Positions 2,027 to 27,833 of a stretch of 32,000 nucleotides of DNA are shown one piece after another. The translations under genes were made by a program, and so were the position numbers. Position 1 is the stretch's first letter; every line of letters starts with the position of its first letter. The notes below the pieces were generated by a model that worked only from the letters and a program-made list of their open reading frames with translations, was not told where the DNA came from and did no database searches. Source of the DNA: Okeania sp. (GTDB taxonomy: Bacteria; Cyanobacteriota; Cyanobacteriia; Cyanobacteriales; Microcoleaceae); contig NZ_JAYKGW010000224.1 in NCBI RefSeq assembly GCF_035285525.1, positions 1 through 32,000 of the forward strand. The letters are read 5' to 3'.

Positions 2027-3208
2027 ATGAGTACCAAAATAGTTATAGAAAATCTAATTAAAATTTACGGTAAAAAACATATTGCGGCTCTGAAATTATT
2101 TCGGGAGGGAAAAACCAGAGATGAGATATTACAATCTACAGGTAATGTTTTAGGATTAGCTGATGTTTCTCTGGAAATTGGCAAAGGAGAATTATTTGTA
2201 ATCATGGGGTTATCTGGTTCCGGAAAATCTACCCTAGTTCGTTGCATTAATCGTTTAATTAATCCTACGAGTGGACACATTTATATTGATGGTGAAGACA
2301 TTGCTCATGTTGATGAGAAAAGAATGCGAGAAATACGACTGAAGAAAATTTCGATGGTATTTCAACGTTTTGGGTTATTTCCTCATAAAACAGTGGCAGA
2401 AAATGTAGGGTATGGGTTAAAGATACGGGGGGTTGATACAAGTCATCGTCGTCAGAAAGCTTTAGAAACACTAGAGGTTGTGGGTTTGGAGAAATGGGCA
2501 GATTATAAACCTACTTCTTTGAGTGGGGGGATGCAGCAACGGGTGGGTTTAGCTCGTGCTTTAGCTACTGATGCCGAGATTTTATTGATGGATGAAGCTT
2601 TTAGCGCTCTCGACCCCCTAACTAGAGGAGAGATGCAGGATGAGTTGTTGCGACTTCAGAAAGAGTTGCAGAAAACAATAGTTTTTATTAGTCACGATAT
2701 GCAAGAGGGTATGAAGTTGGGCGATCGCATTGCGGTGATGAAAGATGGAGCGATTGTCCAATTAGGAACGCCGGAAGATTTAGTTATTAATCCTGTAAAT
2801 GATTATATTAAGGGCTTTACTGAAGAGGTAAATTCGGCTCAAGTTATTAGAGTAGGTTCAGTTATTAGTAAAAAAGTTTCTCTGAAGATTGGTCAAGATT
2901 CTATTAGTTCTGGACTGAAGAAAATGTTAAATCATAATCTCCAATTTATCTATGTAGTTGATGATCAGAATAAACCTATTGGTTTGGTGAAGAAAAAAAA
3001 TTTGGAAAGTAGTCTGAAACAAGGGAAAGAGGATATTAAAACTATTATGGAAACTGATTTTCCCATAGTGGATACTTATACTTGTTTAGAGGATATTTTT
3101 TATCTTTACAAACAAGGATTTCCCCTAGCAGTAATTGATGAGAAAAAAGAATTTCAAGGTATGGTAAAGGCAGTTGATGTATTGACAAGTTTGGGAGAAC
3201 CAAATTGA
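2027..3208 (+). CDS. proV: Glycine betaine/proline-type ABC transporter ATP-binding protein with C-terminal tandem CBS region (ProV/OpuAA family)
   Basis: Walker A GLSGSGKST, ABC signature LSGGMQQRV, Walker B ILLMDEAFSALD, H-loop ISHD. The C-terminal ~120 aa are CBS-pair-like, as in osmoprotectant importer ATPases. Confidence 0.9.
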   Translation: MSTKIVIENLIKIYGKKHIAALKLFREGKTRDEILQSTGNVLGLADVSLEIGKGELFVIMGLSGSGKSTLVRCINRLINPTSGHIYIDGEDIAHVDEKRMREIRLKKISMVFQRFGLFPHKTVAENVGYGLKIRGVDTSHRRQKALETLEVVGLEKWADYKPTSLSGGMQQRVGLARALATDAEILLMDEAFSALDPLTRGEMQDELLRLQKELQKTIVFISHDMQEGMKLGDRIAVMKDGAIVQLGTPEDLVINPVNDYIKGFTEEVNSAQVIRVGSVISKKVSLKIGQDSISSGLKKMLNHNLQFIYVVDDQNKPIGLVKKKNLESSLKQGKEDIKTIMETDFPIVDTYTCLEDIFYLYKQGFPLAVIDEKKEFQGMVKAVDVLTSLGEPN

Positions 3209-3492: not shown

Positions 3493-5466
3493 ATGTTGAT
3501 TTTGAATTATTTATCTAATTATTTTATGGCTGAAACTCAAGGAGGATTAAACAATTTACTCAATCCTTTTCAGGATTATACTTTACCTTTAGACGAATGG
3601 GTTAACAATTTTGTTAATTTTTTGGTTGATAATTTTCGCCCTCTTTTTCAAGCTATCAGCTCACCTATTAGCGGAACTTTAGAAATAGTAAGAGCGACTT
3701 TTTTAGGAATCCCACCTCTAATTTTTTTGATAATTATCGGTATTCTAGTTTGGCAACTAGCAAGTAGAAAAGTAGCCATCTTTAGTGTTATTGCTCTTTG
3801 TCTTATTGGTTTTTGTGGCGCTTGGGAAGCAGCAATGGTTTCCTTATCTTTAATACTGACTGCCGTAATATTTTGTATGCTGGTGGGTATTCCTTTAGGT
3901 GTTGCTTGTGCCGTAAGCGATCGCTTTAATCAAGCATCAAGACCTCTCCTAGATGCTATGCAAACTCTTCCAACTTTCGTTTACTTAGTACCTGTAGTAA
4001 TGTTGTTTGGAATAGGGGAAGTTTCTGGTATAATAGCAACTTTTGTATTTGCGGTTCCACCCCTAATTCGTCTGACCAATCTTGGTATTAGGGAAGTATC
4101 CCCAGAAGTGGTAGAAGCTGCTCTGGCTTTTGGTTCAACTTCTGGACAAGTATTATGGGAAGTACAAATTCCTCTGGCTTTACCTACCATACTTGCGGGA
4201 ATAAATCAAGCGATTTTATTAGCTTTATCAATGTCAGTTGTCACCTCAATGATCGGAGTAGAGGGATTAGGACAAATGGTATTACAAGGTTTAGGACGTT
4301 TGAATGTGGGATTAGCTGCGGTAGGGGGGTTAGGTATTGTATTGATTGCGATAATGCTCGACCGTATTACTCAAGTTATTAGTCAAGGTAGTATTCAGTC
4401 TTGGCAAGAGCGAGGTTTAGTTGGATGGTGGCGGTCTCTTAAGTCTTCTAAACGTAATGGTACTTTTGGGGCAGTTTTCATGGTGACTTTGTTGGTTGTA
4501 ACAGTTTGGCAATTAATATCTCAAACAAATATCAAGTTAATAGAAGATTCATTGCCAGGGAAAGGCATAGTTGTTAGTCCAGTTTCTACTGTGTCAACCT
4601 ATGGTGTATTTGTTGCAGAAATTGTGAATATTGGACTGGAAAAATTAGGTTATGAGATAGAAGAACCGAAACAACTGGGTATTCCAGCAATTCACATTGC
4701 TGTTAGTAATGGAGATTTAGATTTTACTGCAGCTCATTGGGAAATTGCCCATGAAGAACTTTTTAACAGTAATGGTGGGGAAAAAAAATTAGAAAGGTTA
4801 GGAAATCTGATTTCTAATGCTATTCAGGGGTATCAAATAGATAAAAAAACTGCGGAAAAATACAATATTACTAATTTATCACAACTTCAAGACCCAGAAA
4901 TTGCTCGACTATTTGATTCTGATGATGATGGTAAAGCAAATTTAATTGGTTGTAATGCTGGTTGGATGTGTGAAAAAACTATTGCTCATCATTTACAAGC
5001 TTATGAACTTGAAGATACTGTGGAGCAAATTAGAGGAAATTATTCTGCTTTATTAGTAGATGCTATAACTCGTTATCGAGAAGGAGAACCAGTTCTATTT
5101 TTTGCTTGGAAACCACATTGGTCTTCCTCTACTTTAAAAGAAGGGGAAGATATAGAATGGTTGAATGTTCCTTTTACTTCTTTGTTAGGAACTATGGAAA
5201 AGTTTACGGAAAAAGAGACTTCCTTTAATGGTAAAAATCTCGGTTTTCCTGTTGATAATATTAAGATATTAGCTAATAAGAAATTTTTGGAAACTAACCC
5301 AGTTGCTAAAAGTTTTTTAGAGCAGGTTGAGGTTCCCATAGAGGATGTGAATATTCAACAGGAAAAAGTTCAAAATGGAGAGAATAAACCTGAAGATATT
5401 CGTCGTCATGCTGAAGAATGGGTGAGTAATAATCAAGCATTATTTGATAGTTGGGTAAATAATTAA
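3493..5466 (+). CDS. Fused ABC permease + substrate-binding protein for quaternary amines (OpuABC-like), paralogue 1
   Basis: The N-terminal ~290 aa are a ProW/OpuAB-type permease with EAA loop EAALAFGSTSGQVLWEVQIPLALPTILAG. An extra anchor helix follows (FGAVFMVTLLVVTVWQLI), then a ~300-aa OpuAC/ProX-like binding domain with conserved Trp motifs AHWE, GWMCE and AWKPHW. ATG is preceded by CAGGAGA. Confidence 0.88.
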   Translation: MLILNYLSNYFMAETQGGLNNLLNPFQDYTLPLDEWVNNFVNFLVDNFRPLFQAISSPISGTLEIVRATFLGIPPLIFLIIIGILVWQLASRKVAIFSVIALCLIGFCGAWEAAMVSLSLILTAVIFCMLVGIPLGVACAVSDRFNQASRPLLDAMQTLPTFVYLVPVVMLFGIGEVSGIIATFVFAVPPLIRLTNLGIREVSPEVVEAALAFGSTSGQVLWEVQIPLALPTILAGINQAILLALSMSVVTSMIGVEGLGQMVLQGLGRLNVGLAAVGGLGIVLIAIMLDRITQVISQGSIQSWQERGLVGWWRSLKSSKRNGTFGAVFMVTLLVVTVWQLISQTNIKLIEDSLPGKGIVVSPVSTVSTYGVFVAEIVNIGLEKLGYEIEEPKQLGIPAIHIAVSNGDLDFTAAHWEIAHEELFNSNGGEKKLERLGNLISNAIQGYQIDKKTAEKYNITNLSQLQDPEIARLFDSDDDGKANLIGCNAGWMCEKTIAHHLQAYELEDTVEQIRGNYSALLVDAITRYREGEPVLFFAWKPHWSSSTLKEGEDIEWLNVPFTSLLGTMEKFTEKETSFNGKNLGFPVDNIKILANKKFLETNPVAKSFLEQVEVPIEDVNIQQEKVQNGENKPEDIRRHAEEWVSNNQALFDSWVNN

Positions 5467-5493
5467 TAATTAATAATTAATAATTAATAATTA
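5461..5493. repeat. Heptamer tandem repeat (AATTAAT)x4.7, STRR-like, overlapping the stop codon
   Basis: Direct reading. The repeat supplies the last codons (…VNN stop) of the preceding CDS. Confidence 0.9.
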
Positions 5494-5499
5494 GATACT

Positions 5500-5744
5500 T
5501 AGGGCTTACTGAATAAATATAAAAGTGTTTGTCGGTAAAGATTTTAGCCTTTGCAGATACTAATAAAGTACCAGCTTTTGGGTGGTTCCAGTTCAAAAAT
5601 CTAGGATTTTGAGCATTTCGAGGGGTAGAAAATCAAGAGAAAATTATTCTGGCTACTTCTTCTATGATTCCCATTCAAATACGGATTCTGGCTTCTGGCT
5701 TCTGACTTCTCCACACTACTAAAAGACTTTTTCAGCAAACCCTA
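5500..5744. mobile_element. MITE-like dispersed repeat, family A (TIR TAGGGCTTRCTGAA … TTCAGCAAACCCTA), ~245 bp
   Basis: Terminal inverted repeats are visible. It is highly similar along its length to 25414-25659 and partly similar to 10613-10810, 17294-17752 and 21427-. Confidence 0.7.
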
Positions 5745-5926
5745 CTTAGATATAGAATTAGAGATAAAAAACTCTTTCATTATCAATTATCTATAAAACT
5801 CTTTCAAATTGGTATAACTCAATACGGTTCAGATAAGATTGAAACTGCTATCGTATGAAACCATTAAAGTAGCTCTTCAAATTACCGAAATGCAAAATAA
5901 AATTCTTAACTGAACCGTATTATTTT

Positions 5927-6892
5927 CTAACTAACCCCTAAAACATGAATAACCATACGTTGATTTTCATCAACAAAGTAATCTATGGGTTTTAATCCTC
6001 CTTTTATAGCCTGATTTTGAAAATAATCTACCGGATATTTATAAGAACTTAAGAGATGAAATTTTGTGCCTTTCTTAATATTTATCGGAATACCATCTAG
6101 AACAAAATTTTGATCTTCAGTTGCTCTGATATTATGTTCTACACAATGAGTCTCAGCTACCCAATTAAATTCATAATTAAATGCAGTTGGATCGAAGCCA
6201 GAAACTGGTAAGTCGCGATTGATGAAATATAAAATACTGAGTGCCACTTTTGCCATTCTTCCATCATTATAAGCTTTTCTTAATGACGACTCATTTTGAT
6301 TAGCATCCACACCAACAATGAGAATACCATCTGGTTGTAATGCTTGTGAAATTCTTCCGAAAAATTTCAGACAATTACTTATAGAAAGATTAGTAACTGT
6401 ACTACCTTTAAAAAAGACTACGGGTTTAGGAAAGTTTTGCACCAGTTCGACATTTTTAATAAAGTCATCTTGCATTATTTGAACTGGTATTTCTGGTAAT
6501 TCTCGTCCTAAAATTTCTTGAGTTTGGTGCAGATAAGTTTCACAAACATCTACAGGAATATAACTTTGAAATTTTTCAACTGCTTTGAGAAAGGGCAAAG
6601 TTTTATTCTGGAAAGCTATATCTGTACCAGGGCCAAATTCTATAATATTTGCTTCTGGTGGAACATAAGCAGCTATTTTTTTAGCTACATTATTAATTAA
6701 TTGGATTTCTTCTTTGTAAAGGTAGTAACCTAAATTTTGAGATATTAGTTCCATATAACATACTTCCCCATTGGCAGGATCATTCTCAATATTTGGGTCA
6801 GGAGTGCTATACAAATAAGCAGCCATATTTTCTTCCTGATCTCCTAGAAATAGAGCTTTTGTATCGGAAAGAAATAACTCATTAAAGTCCAT
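5927..6892 (-). CDS. EgtD-like SAM-dependent amino-acid N-alpha-methyltransferase (Methyltransf_33 family), substrate unknown
   Basis: 321 aa, the same length as mycobacterial EgtD. Collinear matches to EgtD as I recall it: YYxxxxE, IEFGPG, YIPVDV (FIPFDV), DDF (GDF), VVFFKGSTVTNL (VVFLGSTIGNL), LQPDGILIVGVDA (LQPGDSLLLGTDL), RKAYND (RAYDD), FDPTAFNY (FDLDAFEH). Confidence 0.8.
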   Translation of the reverse strand: MDFNELFLSDTKALFLGDQEENMAAYLYSTPDPNIENDPANGEVCYMELISQNLGYYLYKEEIQLINNVAKKIAAYVPPEANIIEFGPGTDIAFQNKTLPFLKAVEKFQSYIPVDVCETYLHQTQEILGRELPEIPVQIMQDDFIKNVELVQNFPKPVVFFKGSTVTNLSISNCLKFFGRISQALQPDGILIVGVDANQNESSLRKAYNDGRMAKVALSILYFINRDLPVSGFDPTAFNYEFNWVAETHCVEHNIRATEDQNFVLDGIPINIKKGTKFHLLSSYKYPVDYFQNQAIKGGLKPIDYFVDENQRMVIHVLGVS

Positions 6893-7310
6893 GATATTTT
6901 TTTCTCTTGACGTACACTAAGAATATATTATAGCTGATTTCGGGTACTGGTATTTAAGTAAGCTTTTTGAATCATTCTTTCTCAAAAATTTTTATTCATT
7001 TTAAGTATAATAATCCTAAATTAACTGTGATAATTTTTATAGTAGTTAATTTGAGCTGAAAATATTGAAAATTTTGATTTATAACTCCTAATTACTATAA
7101 AAATTCTGATGAAATTAATAGCAAATACTTATAGTTGTTAGAAGATATTTTTACCCTAAAACACAAGAGATAGTTTTCCAGATCGTTTATTTAAAATAAT
7201 AGAAAGTTATAAGGTATAATGCAAGCAGTTGATACACTTAAAAATTTACAGCAAACAAATAAAAAATTCGATTAAACCAACATTATAGGAGATAATCAAC
7301 ACAATTGATT

Positions 7311-9302
7311 ATGAACAATTTATCTAACTATTTTATCGCTCAAACTAAAGGAGAATTAAGCAATTTATTAAATCCATTTCAATCAGGTACTTTACCTCTA
7401 GATGAATGGGTTAATAATTCTGTGAATTTTCTAGTTGATAACTTTCGTCCTCTATTTCAAGCTATCAGTTTACCAATTAGCAAAACTCTAGAAATAGTAG
7501 AATCAACTTTTTTAGCAATTCCACCTTCAATTTTTTTAATAATAATTGCCATTCTAGTTTGGCAACTAGCTGGTAGAAAAATAGCTATTTATGCTTTGAT
7601 ATCTCTTAGTATTATCGGTTTTTGTGGTGCTTGGGAAGCAGCAATGATTTCCCTATCCTTAATACTAACATCCGTAATATTCTGTATGTTAGTCGGTATC
7701 CCTTTAGGTATTGCCTGCGCCGTCAGCGATCGCTTCAATAATATATTGCGTCCTCTTCTCGACGCGATGCAAACTCTTCCCACCTTCGTTTACTTAGTAC
7801 CTGTAGTAATGCTATTTGGAATAGGGGAAGTTTCTGGTATAATAGCAACCTTTGTATTTGCCGTTCCACCTTTAATTCGTCTGACCAATCTTGGTATTAG
7901 ACAAGTATCCCCAGAAGCAGTAGAAGCTGCCCATGCTTTTGGTTCAACTCCTGGACAAGTATTATTAGAAGTGCAAGTTCCTTTAGCATTACCTACCATA
8001 CTTGCTGGAGTAAATCAAGCCATTTTATTAGCTTTATCAATGTCAGTAGTCACCTCAATGATTGGAGTAGAGGGATTAGGACAAATGGTATTACAAGGTT
8101 TAGGGCGTTTGAATGTGGGATTAGCTGCCGTAGGAGGATTAGGTATTGTATTGATTGCAGTAATGCTTGACCGCATTACTCAAAGTATAAATAAAGGCAA
8201 TGTTCAGTCTTGGCAAAACCGTGGTTTAATTGGATGGTGGCGCTCTCGTAACTTGTCGAAACGCGCTCAAGTAACTGTAGGAATAAGTTGTGTAGTTGCT
8301 TTGCTAGTTGGGGTAACAAGTTGGCAATTAATATCTCAGACAAATACCAGATTAACTGAAACTTCATTACCAGGAAAAGGAATAGTAGTACGTCCAACTT
8401 ATGGTTTAGAAAGCTATGGTGAATTTGTCACAGACATTGTGAGTATTGGACTAGAAAAATTAGGATATGAAGTGAAAGGTCAAAAGCAACTAAATGTTCC
8501 AGCAATGCATATTGCTGTTAGTAATGGAGATTTAGATTTTGCGGGAACTCATTGGGAAGTTGCTCACCAAGAATTTTTTGACAGTAATGGTGGAGAAGAA
8601 AAATTAGAACGTTTAGGAACTCTTATTTCTCATTCTACTTTGGGATATGAAATAGATAAAAAAACTGCCGAAGAATACAATATTACTAATTTATCTCAAC
8701 TTCAAGATCCAAAAATTGCTCAACTTTTTGATTCTGATAATGATGGTAAAGCAAACTTAATTGGTTGTACTGCTGGTTGGATGTGCGAAAGAGTTATTAA
8801 TCATCATTTACAAGTTTACGGACTTGAGGATACTGTTGAGCAAGTTGAAGGTGATTATTCTGCCTTGTTAGCAGATACTTTAGGTCGTTATCGTGAAGGT
8901 AAACCTATTCTATATTTTGCTTGGCAACCCCATTGGTTTAATTTTGTTTTAAAAGAAGGGGAAGATGTAGAATTTTTGAGTGTTCCTTTTACATCGTTAT
9001 TAGGAAATATGGGCAATTTGACAGCAAAAGATACTTCATTAAATGGTAAAAATTTGGGTTTTCCTATTGATAATGTTAGGATATTAGCTAATAAGAAATT
9101 TTTGCAGGACAACCCAGTTGCGGAACGTTTATTTGAACAAATTGAAATTCCTATAAAAGACATTAATATTGAACAAGAAAAAGTTAAAAATGGGGAGAAT
9201 AAACCTGTAGATATTCGCCATCATGCTAAAGAATGGATTGCTAGTCATCAACAATTATTTGATAATTGGTTAGAGATAGCATCATTAGTTAATAATGGAT
9301 AA
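7311..9302 (+). CDS. Fused ABC permease + substrate-binding protein for quaternary amines (OpuABC-like), paralogue 2
   Basis: Collinear with 3493-5466 over the full length, with the same EAA loop, anchor helix and Trp motifs THWE, GWMCE, AWQPHW. I prefer ATG 7311 (AGGAGA at 7287-7292). The ORF track starts at TTG 7305. Confidence 0.88.
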   Translation: MNNLSNYFIAQTKGELSNLLNPFQSGTLPLDEWVNNSVNFLVDNFRPLFQAISLPISKTLEIVESTFLAIPPSIFLIIIAILVWQLAGRKIAIYALISLSIIGFCGAWEAAMISLSLILTSVIFCMLVGIPLGIACAVSDRFNNILRPLLDAMQTLPTFVYLVPVVMLFGIGEVSGIIATFVFAVPPLIRLTNLGIRQVSPEAVEAAHAFGSTPGQVLLEVQVPLALPTILAGVNQAILLALSMSVVTSMIGVEGLGQMVLQGLGRLNVGLAAVGGLGIVLIAVMLDRITQSINKGNVQSWQNRGLIGWWRSRNLSKRAQVTVGISCVVALLVGVTSWQLISQTNTRLTETSLPGKGIVVRPTYGLESYGEFVTDIVSIGLEKLGYEVKGQKQLNVPAMHIAVSNGDLDFAGTHWEVAHQEFFDSNGGEEKLERLGTLISHSTLGYEIDKKTAEEYNITNLSQLQDPKIAQLFDSDNDGKANLIGCTAGWMCERVINHHLQVYGLEDTVEQVEGDYSALLADTLGRYREGKPILYFAWQPHWFNFVLKEGEDVEFLSVPFTSLLGNMGNLTAKDTSLNGKNLGFPIDNVRILANKKFLQDNPVAERLFEQIEIPIKDINIEQEKVKNGENKPVDIRHHAKEWIASHQQLFDNWLEIASLVNNG

Positions 9303-9331
9303 TTAATAATTAATAATTAATAATGAATAAT
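9301..9331. repeat. Heptamer tandem repeat (AATTAAT-type), STRR-like, directly after the stop codon
   Basis: Direct reading. It is the same repeat type as at 5461-5493. Confidence 0.85.
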
Positions 9332-13656: not shown

Positions 13657-14517
13657 TCAGCGATCGCGAGGAACAACAAACCTCATTCCTCCTTGAGCGC
13701 CTAACTCATTCTTTTCATACCGGGGGATAACATGAATATTGCAGTGCATCATTTTTTGTCCCCCGGCGCGATTAACATTTATCCCCACATTAAACCCATC
13801 AGGTTGATAGCTTTCCTGTAAAATTTCCTGTACCCGATATACCATAAACCAACATTCTAATTGTTCCTCTATAGGCAACTCAAAATAATTTGCTAAATGA
13901 CGCTTCGGAATAATTAAAGTATGTCCTTTTGTGACCGGATAACCATCAAAAATAGCATAAGCTTTTGCCGATTCTGTAATCAACTTGAGACTTTTTCGAG
14001 GATTACAAAATAAACATTTATTATCCGAATTTTTTTGCTCATTATAATGAGAATATTCATAAATTTCACACAATTTATCAGTATAAATCGACTTAAAAGG
14101 TAAATCAACCAAACACTGATAAGTTGGTTTCTTATGTACAAAATGTTCTCGAAAACCCTCCTTTTTCAAATCTCTTCTCACAGCATAATAAGCCTTTCCC
14201 CCTGACCTTAATAACTGAGAAACTTGCATCAAAACTTCAAATATAACCTTCTCAAACAAAACATTTAAAACATAAAAACAGACAATAGTATCAAAAACTC
14301 CCTGGGGATATTCAGGAAAATAATAAGGATCGTAACCAGTAATATCAAAACCTTTTTCTCGTAGTAATTTAACATCATTACCCCAACCACAACCAAAATC
14401 AAGAATCCTACCTACCAACAAATTTTTCTCTAGCATTAATTTAGCTGGAAATGAGATAAATTTACGTTCTTTAGCAGTCAGGTGACTATATTTATTTGAT
14501 TGTTTATCAGTAAACAT
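13657..14517 (-). CDS. Fusion protein: class I SAM-dependent methyltransferase (N) + HIT-family domain (C) with an atypical H-x-N-x-H triad
   Basis: N-terminal half: motif I ILDFGCGWGND, plus DITGYDP and LLRSGGKAYY. C-terminal half: CLFC, GHTLIIPKRH, GFNVGINVNRAGGQKMMHCNIHVIPR (the HIT fold pattern). Confidence 0.75.
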   Translation of the reverse strand: MFTDKQSNKYSHLTAKERKFISFPAKLMLEKNLLVGRILDFGCGWGNDVKLLREKGFDITGYDPYYFPEYPQGVFDTIVCFYVLNVLFEKVIFEVLMQVSQLLRSGGKAYYAVRRDLKKEGFREHFVHKKPTYQCLVDLPFKSIYTDKLCEIYEYSHYNEQKNSDNKCLFCNPRKSLKLITESAKAYAIFDGYPVTKGHTLIIPKRHLANYFELPIEEQLECWFMVYRVQEILQESYQPDGFNVGINVNRAGGQKMMHCNIHVIPRYEKNELGAQGGMRFVVPRDR

Positions 14518-14829: not shown

Positions 14830-15552
14830 ATGACTAATATTGTCAAATCTTCTCTAAATAAAGAACAAACCACTGCCTGGTTAAGAGGACTAATGACCAT
14901 TGCTTATGCAGATGGAGAACTTGATACAGCAGAAAAAGATTTATTTGACCACTTTAGTCACGAAGAATTTGCTTCAAAAATTGAAATTTCCGAACTCAAA
15001 CCTATTAGTCCAGATGATTTAGCAAAAGTATTTGGAGAAAATCCTACTCTAGCAGAAAATTTTATGAGAACTGCTGTAATGGTAGCTTTAGCAGATGGAA
15101 TTTATTCTGTGACTGAGGATGAAGTGCTTCATAAATATTGTGATGCTTTGGGATTAAAGGTTAAAGCATTAGAAGCATTGCGGAAAAATTTGGAGAAAGC
15201 TAAGGAACAAGCAGAAAATGATACTTTAGAAAGTTGGCTAGAAGAAACTGAACATATAGATAGCTCTACTATTCCCCATGACCCCGAACACCATAAAACC
15301 GTTCTTGCTCCCATCAAAGATTGGTTGGATGGGTGGGATATTCACGATCCCAAAGTGGCTCACATGGTTTGTAAGATGATTCCTGCTCAATGTCCATTTG
15401 AACGAGATGTGGTGGTTTTTGGGAAGAAGGTAGCCCACATTCCAGCGATGTGCAAGCTTAACCCAGTTTACGATCAGTTAGTTGGTCTGCGTTTTCGCGC
15501 TTTATCATATTTGGCAGATGAATGTCAAGAGGATGTTTCTAAATATTTTTAG
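14830..15552 (+). CDS. TerB-like N-terminal domain + Mo-dependent-nitrogenase C-terminal (Mo-nitro_C-like) domain protein
   Basis: Two TerB-type helices are present: AYADGELDTAEKDLF and ALADGIYSVTEDEVL. The C-terminus CKMIPAQCPFERDVVVFGKKVAHIPAMCKLNPVYDQLVGLRFRALSYLADE resembles the cyanobacterial Mo-nitro_C family as I recall it. Confidence 0.6.
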   Translation: MTNIVKSSLNKEQTTAWLRGLMTIAYADGELDTAEKDLFDHFSHEEFASKIEISELKPISPDDLAKVFGENPTLAENFMRTAVMVALADGIYSVTEDEVLHKYCDALGLKVKALEALRKNLEKAKEQAENDTLESWLEETEHIDSSTIPHDPEHHKTVLAPIKDWLDGWDIHDPKVAHMVCKMIPAQCPFERDVVVFGKKVAHIPAMCKLNPVYDQLVGLRFRALSYLADECQEDVSKYF

Positions 15553-19170: not shown

Positions 19171-19268
19171 ATTTATTAACTCAAAGAAACCAGCAATAAG
19201 TCAGTTATCAGTTATCAGTACCTCGTCCAATGAGAAGACTTAAGATACTGAGTTTTCTGTTCTTAACC

Positions 19269-19389
19269 CAGGACTTACGCAAAATAACCTATTTCGTCGT
19301 TGCCAGGGACAAGGTTTACGTTTCATTTGCATAGCAAAGGAGTCCGTAAGGATAGCAATATCAAACACCCATAATTTGTTAAGTCCTGA
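19269..19389. mobile_element. MITE-like repeat, family B
   Basis: CAGGACTTACGCA … TTGTTAAGTCCTGA. The internal blocks (ATTGCTATCCTTACGGACTCC, GCAACGACGAAATAGG) match 21861-21978 in reverse complement. Confidence 0.6.
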
Positions 19390-19598
19390 TACCCTTAAAA
19401 GGCCAGGCTTGAAACCTGACTTTCTGGTTAATTGGCCTGTCAGTAGATAACTGTTAATATTATACTCTTTACAGAGAATGATTGCTACAAATGCTCCTTA
19501 ATATAAAATTCAGATGATTACTATTTTTATAATGCAAATAATAAGGATGATACCTGATAATTATCATCCTTAATAAGAATAGCATAATTAATATTTAA

Positions 19599-19799
19599 CT
19601 ATATTTTTGCAGTTTGATAACGTCTTTGTTTAATATTTATAAATGCCAACATATTATTGGTCTTTAAATACCAATTTATTTTCCTTGATAAATCAACAAT
19701 TAAGTTGATGGAAAATGGATGTCTTAAGAAAGCGATATAGGGTTTAAGAAACATTATCCACAGGGTAGTTTCTAATACTAAACTTTTGAGTTCATCCAT
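19599..19799 (-). CDS. Possible small protein (66 aa), no recognisable family
   Basis: AAGGAG lies 8 nt upstream of ATG 19799. A perfect 10-bp hairpin (19541-19569) lies ~30 nt past the stop. There is no homology evidence. Confidence 0.3.
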   Translation of the reverse strand: MDELKSLVLETTLWIMFLKPYIAFLRHPFSINLIVDLSRKINWYLKTNNMLAFINIKQRRYQTAKI

Positions 19800-20070
19800 G
19801 TATTTTTCTCCTTATATTTTCTCATCCTAAATAACAGTTTTAATCTGGGAAAGAGGCGTCTGTAAGCAGCCTTCAGCACTCTGCATTCAGAAGTGCAAGC
19901 AGAGGAATAAAGCTGAAGTTATACTGTTTCACGGCAGTAAAAAGTCATGTTTTGAGAACTTATAGACTCAAAACTTTGACACTAGAGTAATTTCAAGAAA
20001 TTATTTCACAATGAAAGTTGGAAACTCTCTGTGATATCAAATCTGGTAGTATCGGTAAAATTCTCTCTCT

Positions 20071-20179
20071 GTAAAGGTTTGGTCTCCAATTTATCGGAAA
20101 CCGCACTCTCTACAAACAAACTAAGAATTTTAGCTCTTTTCTGATGGTAGAACCTGATTCTCGAAAGCAGATTTGATAT
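20071..20179. repeat. Dispersed repeat, family C (GGTTTGGTCTCCAA… core)
   Basis: Aligns by eye with 23982-24072 (…CTACAAAC…AGAATTTT.GCTCTTTTCT.ATGG…GCAGATTTGATAT). Related cores occur at 3356-3395, 12118-12215 and 24143-24200. Confidence 0.6.
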
Positions 20180-21426
20180 GATATCCTTAATATGAATTGA
20201 TATCAGAAGGCGCGCAGTTACAGCAAATTACCAGTATAAGAATTACAGATATTAATAATTCACCAGATTTCAAGTAAATGAGGTAGAAGGGAAATGGCAA
20301 AAGCATTTTAGTGCGATTTTTCGGGAACCGTGCATTTTGCTCCCATGAATGTAACTCACACCTGGTAAAATCTGCTGTAAATTAACAGCACAGAATATTT
20401 GATAATGTCTGCACCATAAATGCGTAACACTGCATCAGTTTCTGTAACGAATTTTATAATCTGCCACTTTTTATGTTGCGCAACATTTTGTATTAGCAGT
20501 TGTCGAAAATAGCGATCGCTGACACTAAATAAGTAGCACACTTTGCGGAGCGCAAAAAGCGCACTACACTTATTCTCAACAAACGTAGAGGGTTTTAAAC
20601 CCTTAAATTTTTAGCCGATCTCTGTTCGCCAAGCATTCCCAATAATGAGAAATCCTATAGTAGCGATCGCTAATAAATACTAGATTCAGTATGAATAAGT
20701 CGGGTTTGAAGAAGGAAATCAGGAGTTTGGGCGATCGCCTGGAAATTTTTACTTCTACTCTAATTGCTACAGTAGAGATAGCTTTAAGTTTTCCAACCTT
20801 TTCGGTATTAGGAAAACTTTTTCCTGACAGCCAATTCTCTTGTTTATAAGAAGAGGTAATTATTAACAATTAATTATTAATTATTTAACTACTCATTCTT
20901 CCCTTCTACCGAAGGTATTGAAAATCACCAGAAGCGAATAGAGTGACTTAACTACCACGACTAATCCATCTGTTAATTAAGTTTTACCGCTAATTTAATC
21001 CCACTATATTGACTGAATGGAAATAAATTTTTTCTCTAGGTAGCTTCGTGACCAAACCACATATACAAATCTTCTAAACAGCTACTGAAAAGAAAACTGT
21101 TAGAAGTAACACTTTACTTATATGTAATTTTACTCTGCTACAAAGTATTGTTTTTGTTTCAGCAGTAAACTTTCTTAATTATCATCTTAATAAATATTTC
21201 GTTTTCGTCTAAGTATATATACCCGTACACAAAGGTGAGGTTTTCAACACTTGACTATTATTTACCTTTGAGAAAAATTCCACACTTCAATTTGTAGTAT
21301 TAAACTAGGAGTCAAAATTTTCTCTGGATTCTGACTCCTGGATTCTGGATTAGTACTACATTTTGACGTGCGGAATGTAAGTTTTAATATATTTAGCTAC
21401 TAATTAAAGTTAAAAGCGTTGAGAAA

Positions 21427-21710
21427 TAGGGCTGGCTGAATAAATATAGAAGCATTGATAGATAAAGATTTTAGAGTTTTTAGGTATCAAAAAGTCTGAA
21501 CTTGTAGGTTACTGAGGTACGGTTCCCGAAAAATCAGAAATTGAGCATTTTTGGCTAACTATGATATCGGGATTTAGGGAACGACCCTAGATATGGTGTT
21601 TAAAACCATGGCGCAATCGTTTTTCGCATCTATATATAGTACCTTGGCGTAAGTCCTGAATATAAGAATAACTCTTACTCTATTTCCGGCCAACTCCTCT
21701 TTCAGCAATT
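21427..21710. mobile_element. Degenerate family A MITE with other repeat fragments nested
   Basis: Starts TAGGGCTGGCTGAATAAATATAGAAG. It contains ACGGTTCCCGAAAAATC and a half family-B end (GGCGTAAGTCCTG). The right boundary is unclear. Confidence 0.35.
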
Positions 21711-21860
21711 AACAATGAAAAATTAATAATTAATAATTACTCCCTCTTAAAAGAAGGGGATTGGCTAAAAGGAAAATTTTTATTTATCCCCTTAAAGGGG
21801 GAGACTTCCAGGCGTGAATTGTTGAATGAATAATTATTGACTATAAACCCTTGATTATTA

Positions 21861-21978
21861 CAGGACTTACGCATAATCGACCAGTTTTAGGCATTTGAGA
21901 TTGCTATCCTAACAGACTGCTTCACAAACGCGCCTCGCGAGCAATGACAGAAATACGTTGCGCGTGTGTAAGTCCTAT
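21861..21978. mobile_element. MITE-like repeat, family B, inverted relative to 19269-19389
   Basis: CAGGACTTACGCA … TGTGTAAGTCCTAT, with internal blocks matching the reverse complement of the 19.3-kb copy. Confidence 0.6.
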
Positions 21979-22203
21979 ATTAACAGGACAGAAACACGCG
22001 CAACCAAGAAACCGGGTTTCTTGCCCTAATATTGTGGTTAAAACCACGAAATTTAGTTGATAAACCCAGTTTCTGCGTAAGTCCTATATTAGTTATTAAT
22101 TGTTTAGTAACTCCTATTTTTCTTAACTCTGTAAGGACATTCCATCCAACCTCCCTACGACTTCCTATCTCCACCATCAGACTTTTGTTAGCAAACCCCA
22201 AAT

Positions 22204-22305
22204 AAAGCTTTTAGCCTTTTTATATTGAAAAAAGTACTTAGTTTTTGGCTGTTGTTATGTCAAAATGATAAAATTTTGACCCTGACTACGAGAAAATTTG
22301 GCCGT
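22204..22305. repeat. ~100-bp dispersed repeat directly upstream of a + strand gene (partner at 24249-24349)
   Basis: About 88% identity by eye with 24249-24349 (AAAG.TTTTAGCCTTTTTATAT.GAAAAAAGTAC.TAGTTTTTGG.TGTTGTT…CCCTGACTA…TTTGGCCGT). Confidence 0.8.
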
Positions 22306-22442
22306 AGGACATTACCTCTGTCAAAATAGCGGTCAGGGTTTCCCTGGCTGAAGAATCCCCCATTTTCCCGTAAGGGCAACGTCGGGATTATATCAATAAA
22401 TGTCATTCAACTCCGTTTTGATTCATCTAACAACTCAAAGTT

Positions 22443-25778: not shown

Positions 25779-26843
25779 TTATCTTATTAAAGCAGGTGGT
25801 AAATCTTTAAAAGATGCACCTGCTCCATTATAAAGTGGTAATCCAAAAATATTTGGAGTCTCACAATGAGTAGGTCTGGGAAAACAAAAATTACTTAAAT
25901 TATTGGCTGCAATAAAGAATAAACGCTTCCTTTTTTGTGGCGTTCCATAATCAGTAGCTAGTAACTGTTTATGAGTAATTTCATATCCTATATTATTAAA
26001 TGATTTATAAATTTCTTCTATCATATTAGTAGCTTTAACCTGAGCTAAACCATAAACATTTTCCATAACCACAATTTCAGGTTGTAATTCCTGAATATGA
26101 GCCACATAATCTTGATATAAAACACCTAATGGATCATTAGTTGCAGCTTGTTTACCAGCAACACTGAATGGCTGACATGGCGGCCCCCCAATTATAATGT
26201 CAGGTTTTTTTCCTATTTTTTCTAGCACTATTTCAGGTTTTAAATCTCTAATATCTGCCTTGAAAAAATTCCATTTTGGGCGATTTTTTTTGATAGTTTT
26301 TTCCACAAAATCTTCTATATCAGTAGAAAAAGCAGTTTCAAAATTAATCCTTTCATTTGATGCTTGCTCGAAACCTAAATCTAGTCCTCCTGCTCCAGTA
26401 AAATATGAAGCTATTTTCAATATTCTACTCTTATTTTGTCTTTGAAAATAACGATTAATTTCTCCAGCAATAGCTTTCCCTAATCTCACTGGTACCGCAT
26501 TACCAATTTGCTTTTGTACTTGCCCTAAAGTACCACAAAACTGATAATTTATAGGAAAATCTTGTAAACAAGCAGCTTCCCTGGGAGTGATATATCTATC
26601 CTCTATAGGATGAACAAATTTATTAAAAATATGCGCTGTTACTGTTAGAGAAGGTTTATCCATTTCTAGTCTAATTAAACGCATATTCGGACCCCCTGTT
26701 TTTTTAGCTCCTTTCCTAACAAAACTTTTGTGTTGAAGTCGAGGGGGTAGATTACCCATTTTACCTCCAGGGGGGAGATTTTTTATCCTTTCTAATACAA
26801 TTCCTGTATATTCTCTAGTTTCGTGGTTTACTACCTCTATCAT
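25779..26843 (-). CDS. DNA (cytosine-5) methyltransferase, circularly permuted (motifs IX-X precede I-VIII)
   Basis: Motif order along the protein: IX-like ITPREAACLQDFP, X QIGNAVP, then I YFTGAGGLDLGF, IV GGPPCQPFSVAG, VI VMENVYGL, VIII QKRKRLFFIA. The ATG overlaps the upstream ORF stop (ATGA). Confidence 0.88.
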   Translation of the reverse strand: MIEVVNHETREYTGIVLERIKNLPPGGKMGNLPPRLQHKSFVRKGAKKTGGPNMRLIRLEMDKPSLTVTAHIFNKFVHPIEDRYITPREAACLQDFPINYQFCGTLGQVQKQIGNAVPVRLGKAIAGEINRYFQRQNKSRILKIASYFTGAGGLDLGFEQASNERINFETAFSTDIEDFVEKTIKKNRPKWNFFKADIRDLKPEIVLEKIGKKPDIIIGGPPCQPFSVAGKQAATNDPLGVLYQDYVAHIQELQPEIVVMENVYGLAQVKATNMIEEIYKSFNNIGYEITHKQLLATDYGTPQKRKRLFFIAANNLSNFCFPRPTHCETPNIFGLPLYNGAGASFKDLPPALIR

Positions 26844-27349
26844 AGTTCAAAATCTCTTAAAATTGGCTCTTCTATTGTTATTATATAATCAAAAATCCTT
26901 CTCATTTTTTCCTGTTTCAGGACATTAAAACCTGAGAGATTTTCAACATCTTCTTCATATCCCCACAAAATTTTTAGGAAAGGAGAAATATATTCTTCGC
27001 CGTGACGATATGCTGGTAAATTAGAGATTAGAGCAGTCTTTACTTCCCGATATTCTTTGTAATTAGAAGCAATTTTTAAGACTTGGTATATACCTTTTTT
27101 AATATCATCTGTTCTATCCATACCTACACTGGTTTTACTATCGCTAATTGACTCTCGAATTGGCCATTTATCTATAGTTTTAGCGATCGCAGGTGGCGAA
27201 CCACTGGCATTTGATAAGTAATACATTTTATTATTTTTATCCCTGTTTTGATAAGCTGTTTTTGCTTCTAACCAAGTTTCTACAAAACTAAAGACTATTT
27301 GTTGATTTTTAGGAGTAATAATAAGTTCTACAGCGCTTTCAAAAGGCAA
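26840..27349 (-). CDS. Hypothetical protein, translationally coupled to the methyltransferase; possibly the C-terminal fragment of a decayed restriction endonuclease
   Basis: Only a TTG start is available. An in-frame stop lies 12 codons upstream. There is a 4-bp overlap with the MTase start. No recognisable motif. Confidence 0.4.
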   Translation of the reverse strand: MPFESAVELIITPKNQQIVFSFVETWLEAKTAYQNRDKNNKMYYLSNASGSPPAIAKTIDKWPIRESISDSKTSVGMDRTDDIKKGIYQVLKIASNYKEYREVKTALISNLPAYRHGEEYISPFLKILWGYEEDVENLSGFNVLKQEKMRRIFDYIITIEEPILRDFEL

Positions 27350-27419
27350 GAGTTTGGCATATACTTTTCCTAGAGGAAGAATTTATTGATTGTGCATATA
27401 AAGAGCTGAACTTGCATTT

Positions 27420-27833
27420 TTAAGTTGAGATGTTTGTTAGTATTACTTTCTGATGAGGTTTCTCTATTTCGATATTTTGCAGATAAAAAAGCATAGGATA
27501 AGTTATTAAAGGAGCAGATTTAACTTCTCCAAAAATTAGCAATCCTTCTTGATGATATAAAATAGCATCTGCTAACTCTGTACCTCCAATCGAAACTACT
27601 TTTTCTAAATTATTTGATAATTTTTCTATAAATTTGAGGATAACTTCACTGCTTAATTTTCCAATAGCACCAGATTGCGGTTTAGCTGCTTTTTGGTAAG
27701 TCCAAATTTCTCCTTTTTCATAGCAAGGAGAACAAAGGTTTATAAATCCTATATGAAAATTATAGGGAGCTGGAAGATTGTCGCAACTTTCAATATATGT
27801 TTCTATTCCTGATGTCGCATCTATAATAAGCAA
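27420..27833 (-). CDS. Hypothetical protein with a PD-(D/E)xK-like motif; possible restriction endonuclease fragment
   Basis: ELAD-x13-GEVKS has the canonical D…ExK spacing. Only a TTG start is available. It overlaps the next ORF in a different frame. Confidence 0.35.
   Translation of the reverse strand: MLIIDATSGIETYIESCDNLPAPYNFHIGFINLCSPCYEKGEIWTYQKAAKPQSGAIGKLSSEVILKFIEKLSNNLEKVVSIGGTELADAILYHQEGLLIFGEVKSAPLITYPMLFYLQNIEIEKPHQKVILTNIST

Follow-up and report, generated by a model that had tools for sequence, protein, structure and literature searches.

Two kinds of described system come close to the locus reported here. In EgtD, the enzyme that makes hercynine for ergothioneine, structures of the M. 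tuberculosis protein have placed Y56, Y206 and S284 in contact with the alpha-carboxylate of the substrate and N166, G161 and T163 in contact with its alpha-amino group, while the imidazole is recognised by T213 (which positions an ordered water), M252 and E282 (PMC8593015). In marine Synechococcus, proX adjoins and co-occurs with the betaine methyltransferase genes gbmt1/gbmt2, an arrangement for which 'leakage recovery' has been proposed (PMC10087775), and the compatible-solute transporters of cyanobacteria act mainly against leakage (PMC4390839). In the present study, we analysed a stretch of 32,000 nucleotides from Okeania sp. (contig NZ_JAYKGW010000224.1, positions 1 to 32,000; referred to below as the window), in which a gene for an EgtD-like protein (5927..6892, minus strand) is embedded among genes of a ProU-type importer. 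The reading that we favour, and to which we give about even credence, is that this protein is an N-alpha-methyltransferase for an amino acid other than histidine, and that the betaine it would make is recaptured by the flanking importer.

Among nitrogen-rich osmolytes, betaines are of major importance, and they also serve as currency in the exchange between marine microbes; for several of them, however, no gene is known or one has been assigned in a single organism only. Hypersaline cyanobacteria, for instance, have been reported to contain glutamate betaine, for which the reviews give no gene (PMC4390839, PMC7824335). For the homoserine betaine of Trichodesmium a pathway gene has already been named, since Hou et al. 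(2018; PMC5864184) give Tery_2447 as the homoserine methyltransferase of T. erythraeum IMS101, induced at 43 ppt; in its passage on this gene, the paper attributes the assignment to Pade et al. 2016.

Family and fold of the predicted methyltransferase

The initial annotation had described the open reading frame (ORF) of 321 amino acids (aa) at 5927..6892 as EgtD-like, and this was borne out at the level of family and fold. Its product matched the profile of PF10017 (Methyltransf_33) over residues 50-318 (model positions 33-302 of 304) with an E-value of 5.1e-49 and 167.4 bits (gathering threshold 23). The S-adenosylmethionine (SAM) motifs were found to be intact (IIEFGPGT, IPVD115 and DDF144, compared with LVELGSGT, IPFD and GDF in EgtD). 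An AlphaFold2 model obtained with 32 homologues as input (pLDDT 93.7, pTM 0.87) was compared with the PDB using Foldseek. The protein can be assigned to the two-domain EgtD fold, because the best 15 matches were all EgtD chains (TM score 0.78-0.84) and the next-best fold had a TM score below 0.5; the GSMT structure 5gwx ranked only 50th (0.45).

Membership of the EgtD orthologue group is another matter. The score against TIGR03438, the EgtD equivalog model, was 168.2 bits and thus below the cut-off of 290.9, and that against TIGR03439 (EasF) was 91.3 bits, again below the cut-off (205.55). Judged by these scores, the product is an EgtD-fold protein but no EgtD orthologue. Its start codon is credible, since the N-terminus aligns with those of homologues. 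The ratio dN/dS, calculated against eight relatives, was 0.16-0.32; the gene is intact and under purifying selection, and is not a chance ORF.

Substrate pocket and clade signature

Residues were mapped using a profile-to-EgtD alignment (chain index equal to the UniProt number plus 2) and an alignment of 200 sequences. The segment T-E282-V-S284-C-K-F of EgtD pairs with L-L281-S-S283-Y-K-Y of the window enzyme, exactly as had been read by eye in the initial annotation. The residues that hold the amino-acid backbone are kept: Y56, G161, T163, N166, Y206 and S284 of EgtD correspond to Y56, G163, T165, N168, Y208 and S283, of which Y56, N168, Y208 and S283 are invariant across the clade described below. 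The GST(V/I)xN amino-group motif, earlier recognised as conserved, is present as F-K-G-S-T-V-T-N and contains N168. The imidazole triad, in contrast, is replaced throughout (T213 by M213, M252 by H253, E282 by L281), so that the replacement of the histidine-contacting Glu by Leu, as first proposed, is accompanied by changes at the two other positions. Canonical sequences of the EgtD/EanA type in the same alignment carry F47/T59/T213/M252/E282. The PDB matches of the model included the M252V/E282A variant of EgtD (PDB 4pip), and this double mutation is said to switch EgtD from histidine towards Trp (work of Vit et al. 2015).

A single-sequence search recovered 60 relatives, down to 26% identity, about 50 of which form a clade (35-92% identity) with a signature that is absent from EgtD and holds down to 35% identity. 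It consists of the invariant or near-invariant residues Y26, Y28, D38, Y46, Y59, K162, N198, H253, H279, S282 and S283, where Y46, Y59, K162 and H253 stand in place of F47, T59, L160 and M252 of EgtD. Position 281, the counterpart of E282, is a variable hydrophobic residue (L281 in the window enzyme). By eye, the side chains at positions 213 and 281 appear loosely complementary in size across the clade, an impression that decides nothing. The clade-specific residues K162, H253, H279, S282, Y46 and Y59 suggest a substrate with a polar side chain, hydroxylated or acidic, because the pocket has gained a Lys, two His and the hydroxyls of Tyr and Ser. Candidate substrates may accordingly be sought among Tyr, homoserine, Thr, Ser, Glu and Asp; glycine may also be considered.

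The named members of the clade belong to Okeania, a Trichodesmium metagenome-assembled genome (MAG), Moorena, Xenococcus, Cuspidothrix issatschenkoi, Calothrix rhizosoleniae and Ca. Albibeggiatoa, and genome scans added loci from Lyngbya aestuarii and Dapis; the clade is mostly cyanobacterial. Every functionally named member is listed in NCBI/UniRef as L-histidine N(alpha)-methyltransferase, a label that is probably wrong, and a mislabelled clade would make genome surveys score such cyanobacteria as ergothioneine or hercynine producers. An exhaustive profile search yielded 5,686 Methyltransf_33 representatives at 50% identity (718 with E <1e-30), and many further non-histidine pocket signatures were present among the best 150. 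The known EgtD, Tyr and Trp activities therefore sample only a small part of the family. To our knowledge, the non-histidine members recognised so far are all fungal and act on aromatic amino acids. Our literature search found neither an account of the present clade nor one of any bacterial Methyltransf_33 enzyme acting on a substrate other than histidine, and a search for EgtD relatives acting on homoserine or on other betaines in cyanobacteria returned nothing relevant.

The flanking transporter genes

The part of the window that holds the methyltransferase gene and its neighbours comprises the following features.

2027..3208, plus strand: ProV-type ATP-binding cassette (ABC) ATPase with a C-terminal CBS domain (ABC_tran and CBS matches; TIGR01186 419 bits, cut-off 326.6)
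3493..5466, plus strand: ProW permease-ProX binding protein fusion, paralogue 1, 657 aa, convergent with the methyltransferase gene
5467..5926: convergent spacer of 460 bp between the 3' ends of the first fusion gene (proWX1) and the methyltransferase gene
5927..6892, minus strand: predicted Methyltransf_33 (EgtD-fold) SAM-dependent N-alpha-methyltransferase, 321 aa, ATG start (profile match, fold, SAM motifs); by exact sequence match, NCBI entry MEB3343173.1 / WP_324238604.1, labelled 'L-histidine N(alpha)-methyltransferase'
6893..7304: divergent intergenic region of 412 bp between the methyltransferase gene and the second fusion gene (proWX2), GC content 23.3% (window mean 33.7%)
7305..9302, plus strand: ProW permease-ProX binding protein fusion, paralogue 2, 665 aa, TTG start, divergent from the methyltransferase gene

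The gene proV is the sole ATPase gene of this importer cluster. The placement of the methyltransferase gene between two quaternary-amine importer genes, and its divergence from the second of them across an AT-rich region, were thus as initially annotated. The ProX parts of fusions 1 and 2 scored 414 and 394 bits, respectively, against NF008334 (cut-off 215), and the binding domain of fusion 1 matched E. coli ProX (PDB 1r9l) with an E-value of 5e-89. The equivalents of W65, H69, W140, C142 and W188 of E. coli ProX, including the aromatic cage, are kept in both fusions, which on this evidence would be genuine quaternary-amine binders. The two fusions are 76% identical overall; since the permease part is 85% and the binding domain only 69% identical, the pattern suggests that the gene was duplicated and that the copies then diverged in ligand recognition.

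The divergent region presumably holds the promoters of both the methyltransferase gene and proWX2; in a consensus promoter scan of 6893..7304, sites were no commoner than in shuffled sequence. No terminator-like site was found in the convergent spacer, and no Rfam family matched anywhere in the whole window. The stop codons of both proWX paralogues lie within heptamer repeats (five copies of AATAATT at 5458-5493 and six of TTAATAA at 9289-9331), which recall the short tandemly repeated (STRR) sequences found in filamentous cyanobacteria.

Genomic context in related strains

The context of the methyltransferase gene was surveyed at 47 loci, representing 19 distinct contexts (loci are denoted below by L and a number). 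The initial annotation had seen no egtB-, egtC- or egtE-like gene in the window, and a Pfam scan of its 17 larger ORFs likewise detected no FGE-sulfatase/DinB (EgtB), EgtC, EgtE or rhodanese (EanB) protein. The result extends to the clade: EgtB, EanB, EgtC and EgtE were absent from all 19 contexts, as were genes of non-ribosomal peptide synthetases and polyketide synthases (NRPS/PKS). Two distant hits with the canonical signature (P0058 and P0056) served as controls, and in both cases the gene directly followed that of an EanB-like rhodanese of about 430 aa. In these control loci (L038:1646-8040 and L036:4673-7005) the rhodanese and the canonical Methyltransf_33 protein form the EanB/EanA pair of anaerobic ergothioneine synthesis. 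The first of them continues with a cysteine desulfurase, SufE, an ABC ATPase and an OpuAC-permease fusion, and we take the last two to be an EgtUV-like ergothioneine importer.

The methyltransferase gene was found among ProU-type genes in five of the 19 contexts, i.e. the window and (i) L026 (70% identity), with proX and proWX divergent upstream and proV convergent downstream; (ii) L011/L031 (72%), with the order proW, MscS channel, sulfotransferase, methyltransferase, proX, proV and two dioxygenases resembling gamma-butyrobetaine hydroxylase (GBBH) close by, the Sulfotransfer_1 gene being divergent in L011; (iii) L027 (68%), with proX convergent; and (iv) L040 (8001-12433), with three tandem methyltransferase paralogues (333 aa each, 78-80% mutually identical) followed by a convergent OpuAC/ProX gene. 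The key signature residues are intact in all three paralogues of L040. In all five contexts the methyltransferase gene is convergent with proX or proV, and otherwise gene order and fusion state differ, which points to selection on the linkage rather than to inheritance of one block. The aromatic cage of the linked ProX is W/W/W in the window and L026, and Y/W/Y in L011, L040 and L027.

Two of these loci show further features. The triplication in L040 could reflect gene-dosage amplification or specialisation of the copies by step or substrate. The island around the L011 gene (400-8054) includes two tandem GBBH-like/TauD dioxygenases, a ureidoglycolate-lyase-family gene and the Sulfotransfer_1 gene; these neighbouring enzymes might modify or catabolise a trimethylammonium compound, the GBBH-like/TauD architecture being that of a carnitine-pathway hydroxylase.

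A pair of genes for small multidrug resistance (SMR) transporters adjoins the methyltransferase gene in two other contexts, L017 and L044-47. The latter belongs to a Cuspidothrix-type locus (L028:16-4912, L044:1-6762; 65% identity) with genes in a row for an NAD-epimerase, the Methyltransf_33 protein, a COMT-type O-methyltransferase, a FAD halogenase-like protein and an enzyme of the fatty-acid hydroxylase family. The two methyltransferase genes of this row overlap by 4 nt, as in translational coupling, and two convergent SMR genes end it. The subclade in question comes from freshwater Nostocales and has the same pocket signature as the window enzyme. The genes of this locus may form a small cluster that makes a tailored betaine. 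A polar, hydroxyl-bearing substrate would fit the presence of an O-methyltransferase beside the Cuspidothrix-type genes and of a sulfotransferase beside that of L011.

Two other sets of neighbours were set aside. An HpnI-like GT21 glycosyltransferase and a DegT aminotransferase, considered as operon partners at six Okeania/Dapis loci, most probably reflect inherited synteny, since the intergenic distances, where measured, come to about 240-640 nt, the loci belong to closely related genomes and pseudogenes make up three of the six copies. The P-type ATPase that follows the Albibeggiatoa copy was considered as KdpB and rejected, being of the heavy-metal type.

Proposed function and alternative explanations

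According to the reading favoured here, the EgtD-fold enzyme would take SAM and N-alpha-methylate a free alpha-amino acid other than histidine, most likely carrying the methylation through to the trimethyl betaine by a presumed transfer of three methyl groups. This betaine would be the cargo, or one cargo, of the importer formed by ProV and the two ProW-ProX fusions, and the locus would work as a make-and-recapture module for a betaine serving, putatively, as a compatible solute. Synthesis plus recapture seems the best reading because the embedding of the methyltransferase gene in ProU-type clusters recurs at four other, rearranged loci. A more specific proposal, which we advance tentatively and with some doubt, is that the clade represents the first EgtD-fold family that trimethylates a non-aromatic amino acid into a cyanobacterial compatible solute, with dedicated ProX paralogues recapturing the leaked product. 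This would be a one-enzyme betaine route, distinct both from GSMT/SDMT and from choline oxidation. The enzyme might be the long-unassigned glutamate betaine synthase, or it might provide a new way of making glycine, threonine or homoserine betaine. The clade is a concrete candidate enzyme: its members are conserved, share a clear active-site signature and are found repeatedly next to betaine transporter genes.

Several observations weigh against this reading. The five ProU-linked loci fall in two sister subclades and are thus not fully independent, and transporter linkage of any kind is missing from 12 of the 19 contexts. The closest relatives (L009, L001, L022 and L006; 87-93% DNA identity) have no ProU linkage and entirely different flanking genes. 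Four copies of the clade carry stops or frameshifts, although sequencing error is possible: L004:9995-10966, L025:4512-5480, L006:775-1736 and L008:10001-10918. In the copy of Dapis sp. BLCC M172 the lesion is a stop at the invariant E85 in SAM motif I; an in-frame stop interrupts the copy on one metagenome contig, that of Okeania sp. KiyG1 is frameshifted, and that of O. hirsuta contains several frameshifts and stops. The Cuspidothrix-type row looks like the genes of a specialised metabolite rather than of a bulk osmolyte. Finally, the window ProX domains, 43-45% identical to E. coli ProX, could merely import external glycine betaine or proline betaine. The synthesis plus re-uptake module that had been proposed for this locus is supported by the embedding in ProU-type genes (five of 19 contexts) and the precedent of gbmt1/2-proVWX, whereas the lack of linkage in the closest relatives, the pseudogenes and the freshwater subclade count against it.

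The alternative that deserves most attention, though we think it rather unlikely, is that the enzyme makes the betaine of an aromatic amino acid or some other specialised one (for example of the Tyr or Trp type, as in fungal relatives of EgtD), a secondary metabolite or its precursor, with transporters that are unrelated or handle a bioactive cation. All characterised non-histidine members of the fold are said to use aromatic amino acids as substrates (Vit et al. 2015). The PDB contains an engineered Trp variant (M252V/E282A), the position of E282 is hydrophobic here, and the Cuspidothrix-type loci (L028, L044-47) couple the methyltransferase to COMT-type O-methyltransferase, FAD halogenase-like and hydroxylase-family enzymes and an SMR pair. 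The divergent Sulfotransfer_1 gene of L011 points the same way, and the patchy distribution, cassette-like contexts and frequent pseudogenes would suit accessory metabolism. However, the marine contexts contain no NRPS/PKS or other natural-product genes, at five loci the methyltransferase gene lies within an osmoregulatory ProU cluster, which in one case includes MscS, and the pocket has gained a Lys and two His instead of becoming larger or more hydrophobic, as the change of EgtD towards Trp required.

That the gene encodes the Okeania synthase for homoserine betaine (N,N,N-trimethylhomoserine), the solute known from Trichodesmium, appears improbable. In its favour, Trichodesmium has homoserine betaine as its main solute (PMC6753628) and Okeania as its closest relative. 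A hydroxyl could be accommodated by the polar pocket (H253, S282, Y46), and a copy with 92% identity lies on one contig of a Trichodesmium MAG. This contig, however, is only 2.8 kb long and may be mis-binned, the named clade members include no T. erythraeum, and clade members are also found in freshwater Cuspidothrix and Ca. Albibeggiatoa. Judged from the 60 relatives recovered, T. erythraeum IMS101, the sole organism with proven homoserine betaine, appears to lack the clade, and the salt-induced Tery_2447 has been named as its homoserine methyltransferase (Hou et al. 2018, PMC5864184). The Trichodesmium compound, cited in the initial annotation as an example of an unusual betaine, is therefore not supported as the product of this gene.

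It is worth considering whether the NCBI label is correct after all, i.e. whether the gene encodes a true EgtD that supplies hercynine to an ergothioneine pathway whose egtB or eanB gene lies at another place in the genome. The NCBI and UniRef labels say so, the best PDB matches are EgtD, and an ergothioneine cluster can hold an OpuAC-type transporter, as in L038. We nevertheless consider this highly improbable: the equivalog score falls far short of its cut-off (168 versus 290.9 bits), T213, M252 and E282 are all replaced here and kept in genuine EanA/EgtD, and EgtB or EanB was found in none of the 19 contexts, as against an EanB-like rhodanese in both controls. In addition, substitution of two of these residues (the M252V/E282A double mutant, PDB 4pip) reportedly suffices to turn EgtD off histidine.

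Accidental adjacency, in which a mobile, dispensable cassette landed between the proWX copies and has no functional tie to them, is also quite improbable, although the gene does look like a mobile cassette. DNA similarity to the four closest relatives is limited to window positions 5726-6920, i.e. the gene with about 30 bp upstream and 100-330 bp downstream, beyond which the neighbours are all different; IS605/TnpB genes lie close to the copies in L009 and L041, and the four pseudogenes fit dispensability. On the other hand, the window copy is intact and under purifying selection, and convergent embedding with proX or proV recurs in L026, L011, L027 and L040, which are 68-73% identical and rearranged. 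Repeated chance adjacency is unlikely, because ProX-type genes are rare in a genome.

Other features of the window

At the edge of the window, upstream of the first ORF, positions 1-209 contain 20 copies of the 9-bp unit CCTTGTCTC, followed by three copies of CCGAAACTT. The ORF at 283-1656 encodes a 457-aa protein that starts with a ribbon-helix-helix (CopG) domain and continues as a long coiled-coil-like body, rich in Gln and Glu and composed of in-frame tandem repeats of 90/180 bp, one 180-bp unit being duplicated at 95% identity. Two domain combinations were observed: a class I methyltransferase domain (PF13489) fused to a HIT-family nucleotide hydrolase/transferase domain (13657-14517, minus strand, 286 aa), and a TerB domain together with a 'Mo-dependent nitrogenase C-terminus' domain (PF06967) in one protein (14830-15552, plus strand).

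Positions 19171-22442 (about 3.2 kb) contain no ORF of at least 90 aa on either strand, no tRNA and no Rfam match. This gap fits the large non-coding fraction of Trichodesmium-like genomes and could hide a pseudogene or a non-coding RNA. At 25779-27833 (minus strand) lies a C5 cytosine DNA methyltransferase of 354 aa, immediately preceded on its own strand by two small ORFs of 169 and 137 aa. The 169-aa ORF gave no Pfam match, and the region may be a restriction-modification or orphan methylase module.

Comparison with known systems

The window enzyme shares with EgtD (M. smegmatis and M. tuberculosis; PDB 4pim, 4pio, 4uy6 and 7scf) and EanA the fold (TM score up to 0.84), the SAM motifs and the carboxylate and amino binders and, like EgtD, it is a stand-alone single-domain protein of about 320 aa. 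It differs in that structure-aligned identity to EgtD is only 21-22% (26-29% for EanA-like hits), T213/M252/E282 is M/H/L, and the clade-specific K162, Y59, H279 and S282 are added; its gene, moreover, has betaine importer genes as neighbours instead of EgtB or EanB. The EgtUV-type importer beside EanA/EanB in L038 is a partial parallel, as there too a Methyltransf_33 gene shares its cluster with genes for an ABC ATPase and an OpuAC-permease fusion. That locus, unlike ours, has the canonical histidine signature and is flanked by EanB, a cysteine desulfurase and SufE, and the fusion order and the subtype of the substrate-binding protein also differ (the name EgtUV is the one we presume to apply).

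The fungal Tyr and Trp betaine synthases and EasF are said to resemble the window enzyme in having the EgtD fold, in yielding betaines other than hercynine and in switching specificity through positions 252 and 282 (Vit et al. 2015). These, however, are eukaryotic enzymes with aromatic substrates, whereas the window clade is bacterial and its pocket has gained Lys and His rather than small or hydrophobic residues. Tery_2447, from the sister genus of Okeania, is comparable in being a SAM-dependent enzyme of a cyanobacterium, one that is said to form the main compatible solute by trimethylating an amino acid; judged from the absence of T. erythraeum among the relatives, it probably belongs to another protein family.

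In its surroundings, the locus most closely recalls gbmt1/gbmt2-proVWX of marine Synechococcus and Prochlorococcus (PMC10087775), where, again in cyanobacteria, betaine N-methyltransferase genes stand beside a ProU-type importer. There, two class I enzymes of the GSMT/SDMT type share the three methylations, whereas the window has a single PF10017 enzyme; the ProX of that system is about 30% similar to the L. lactis type, whereas that of the window is of the E. coli type, fused to ProW and present as two paralogues. On the comparisons made here, the window enzyme would be like EgtD in its chemistry and like the Gbmt-ProU module in its genomic logic.

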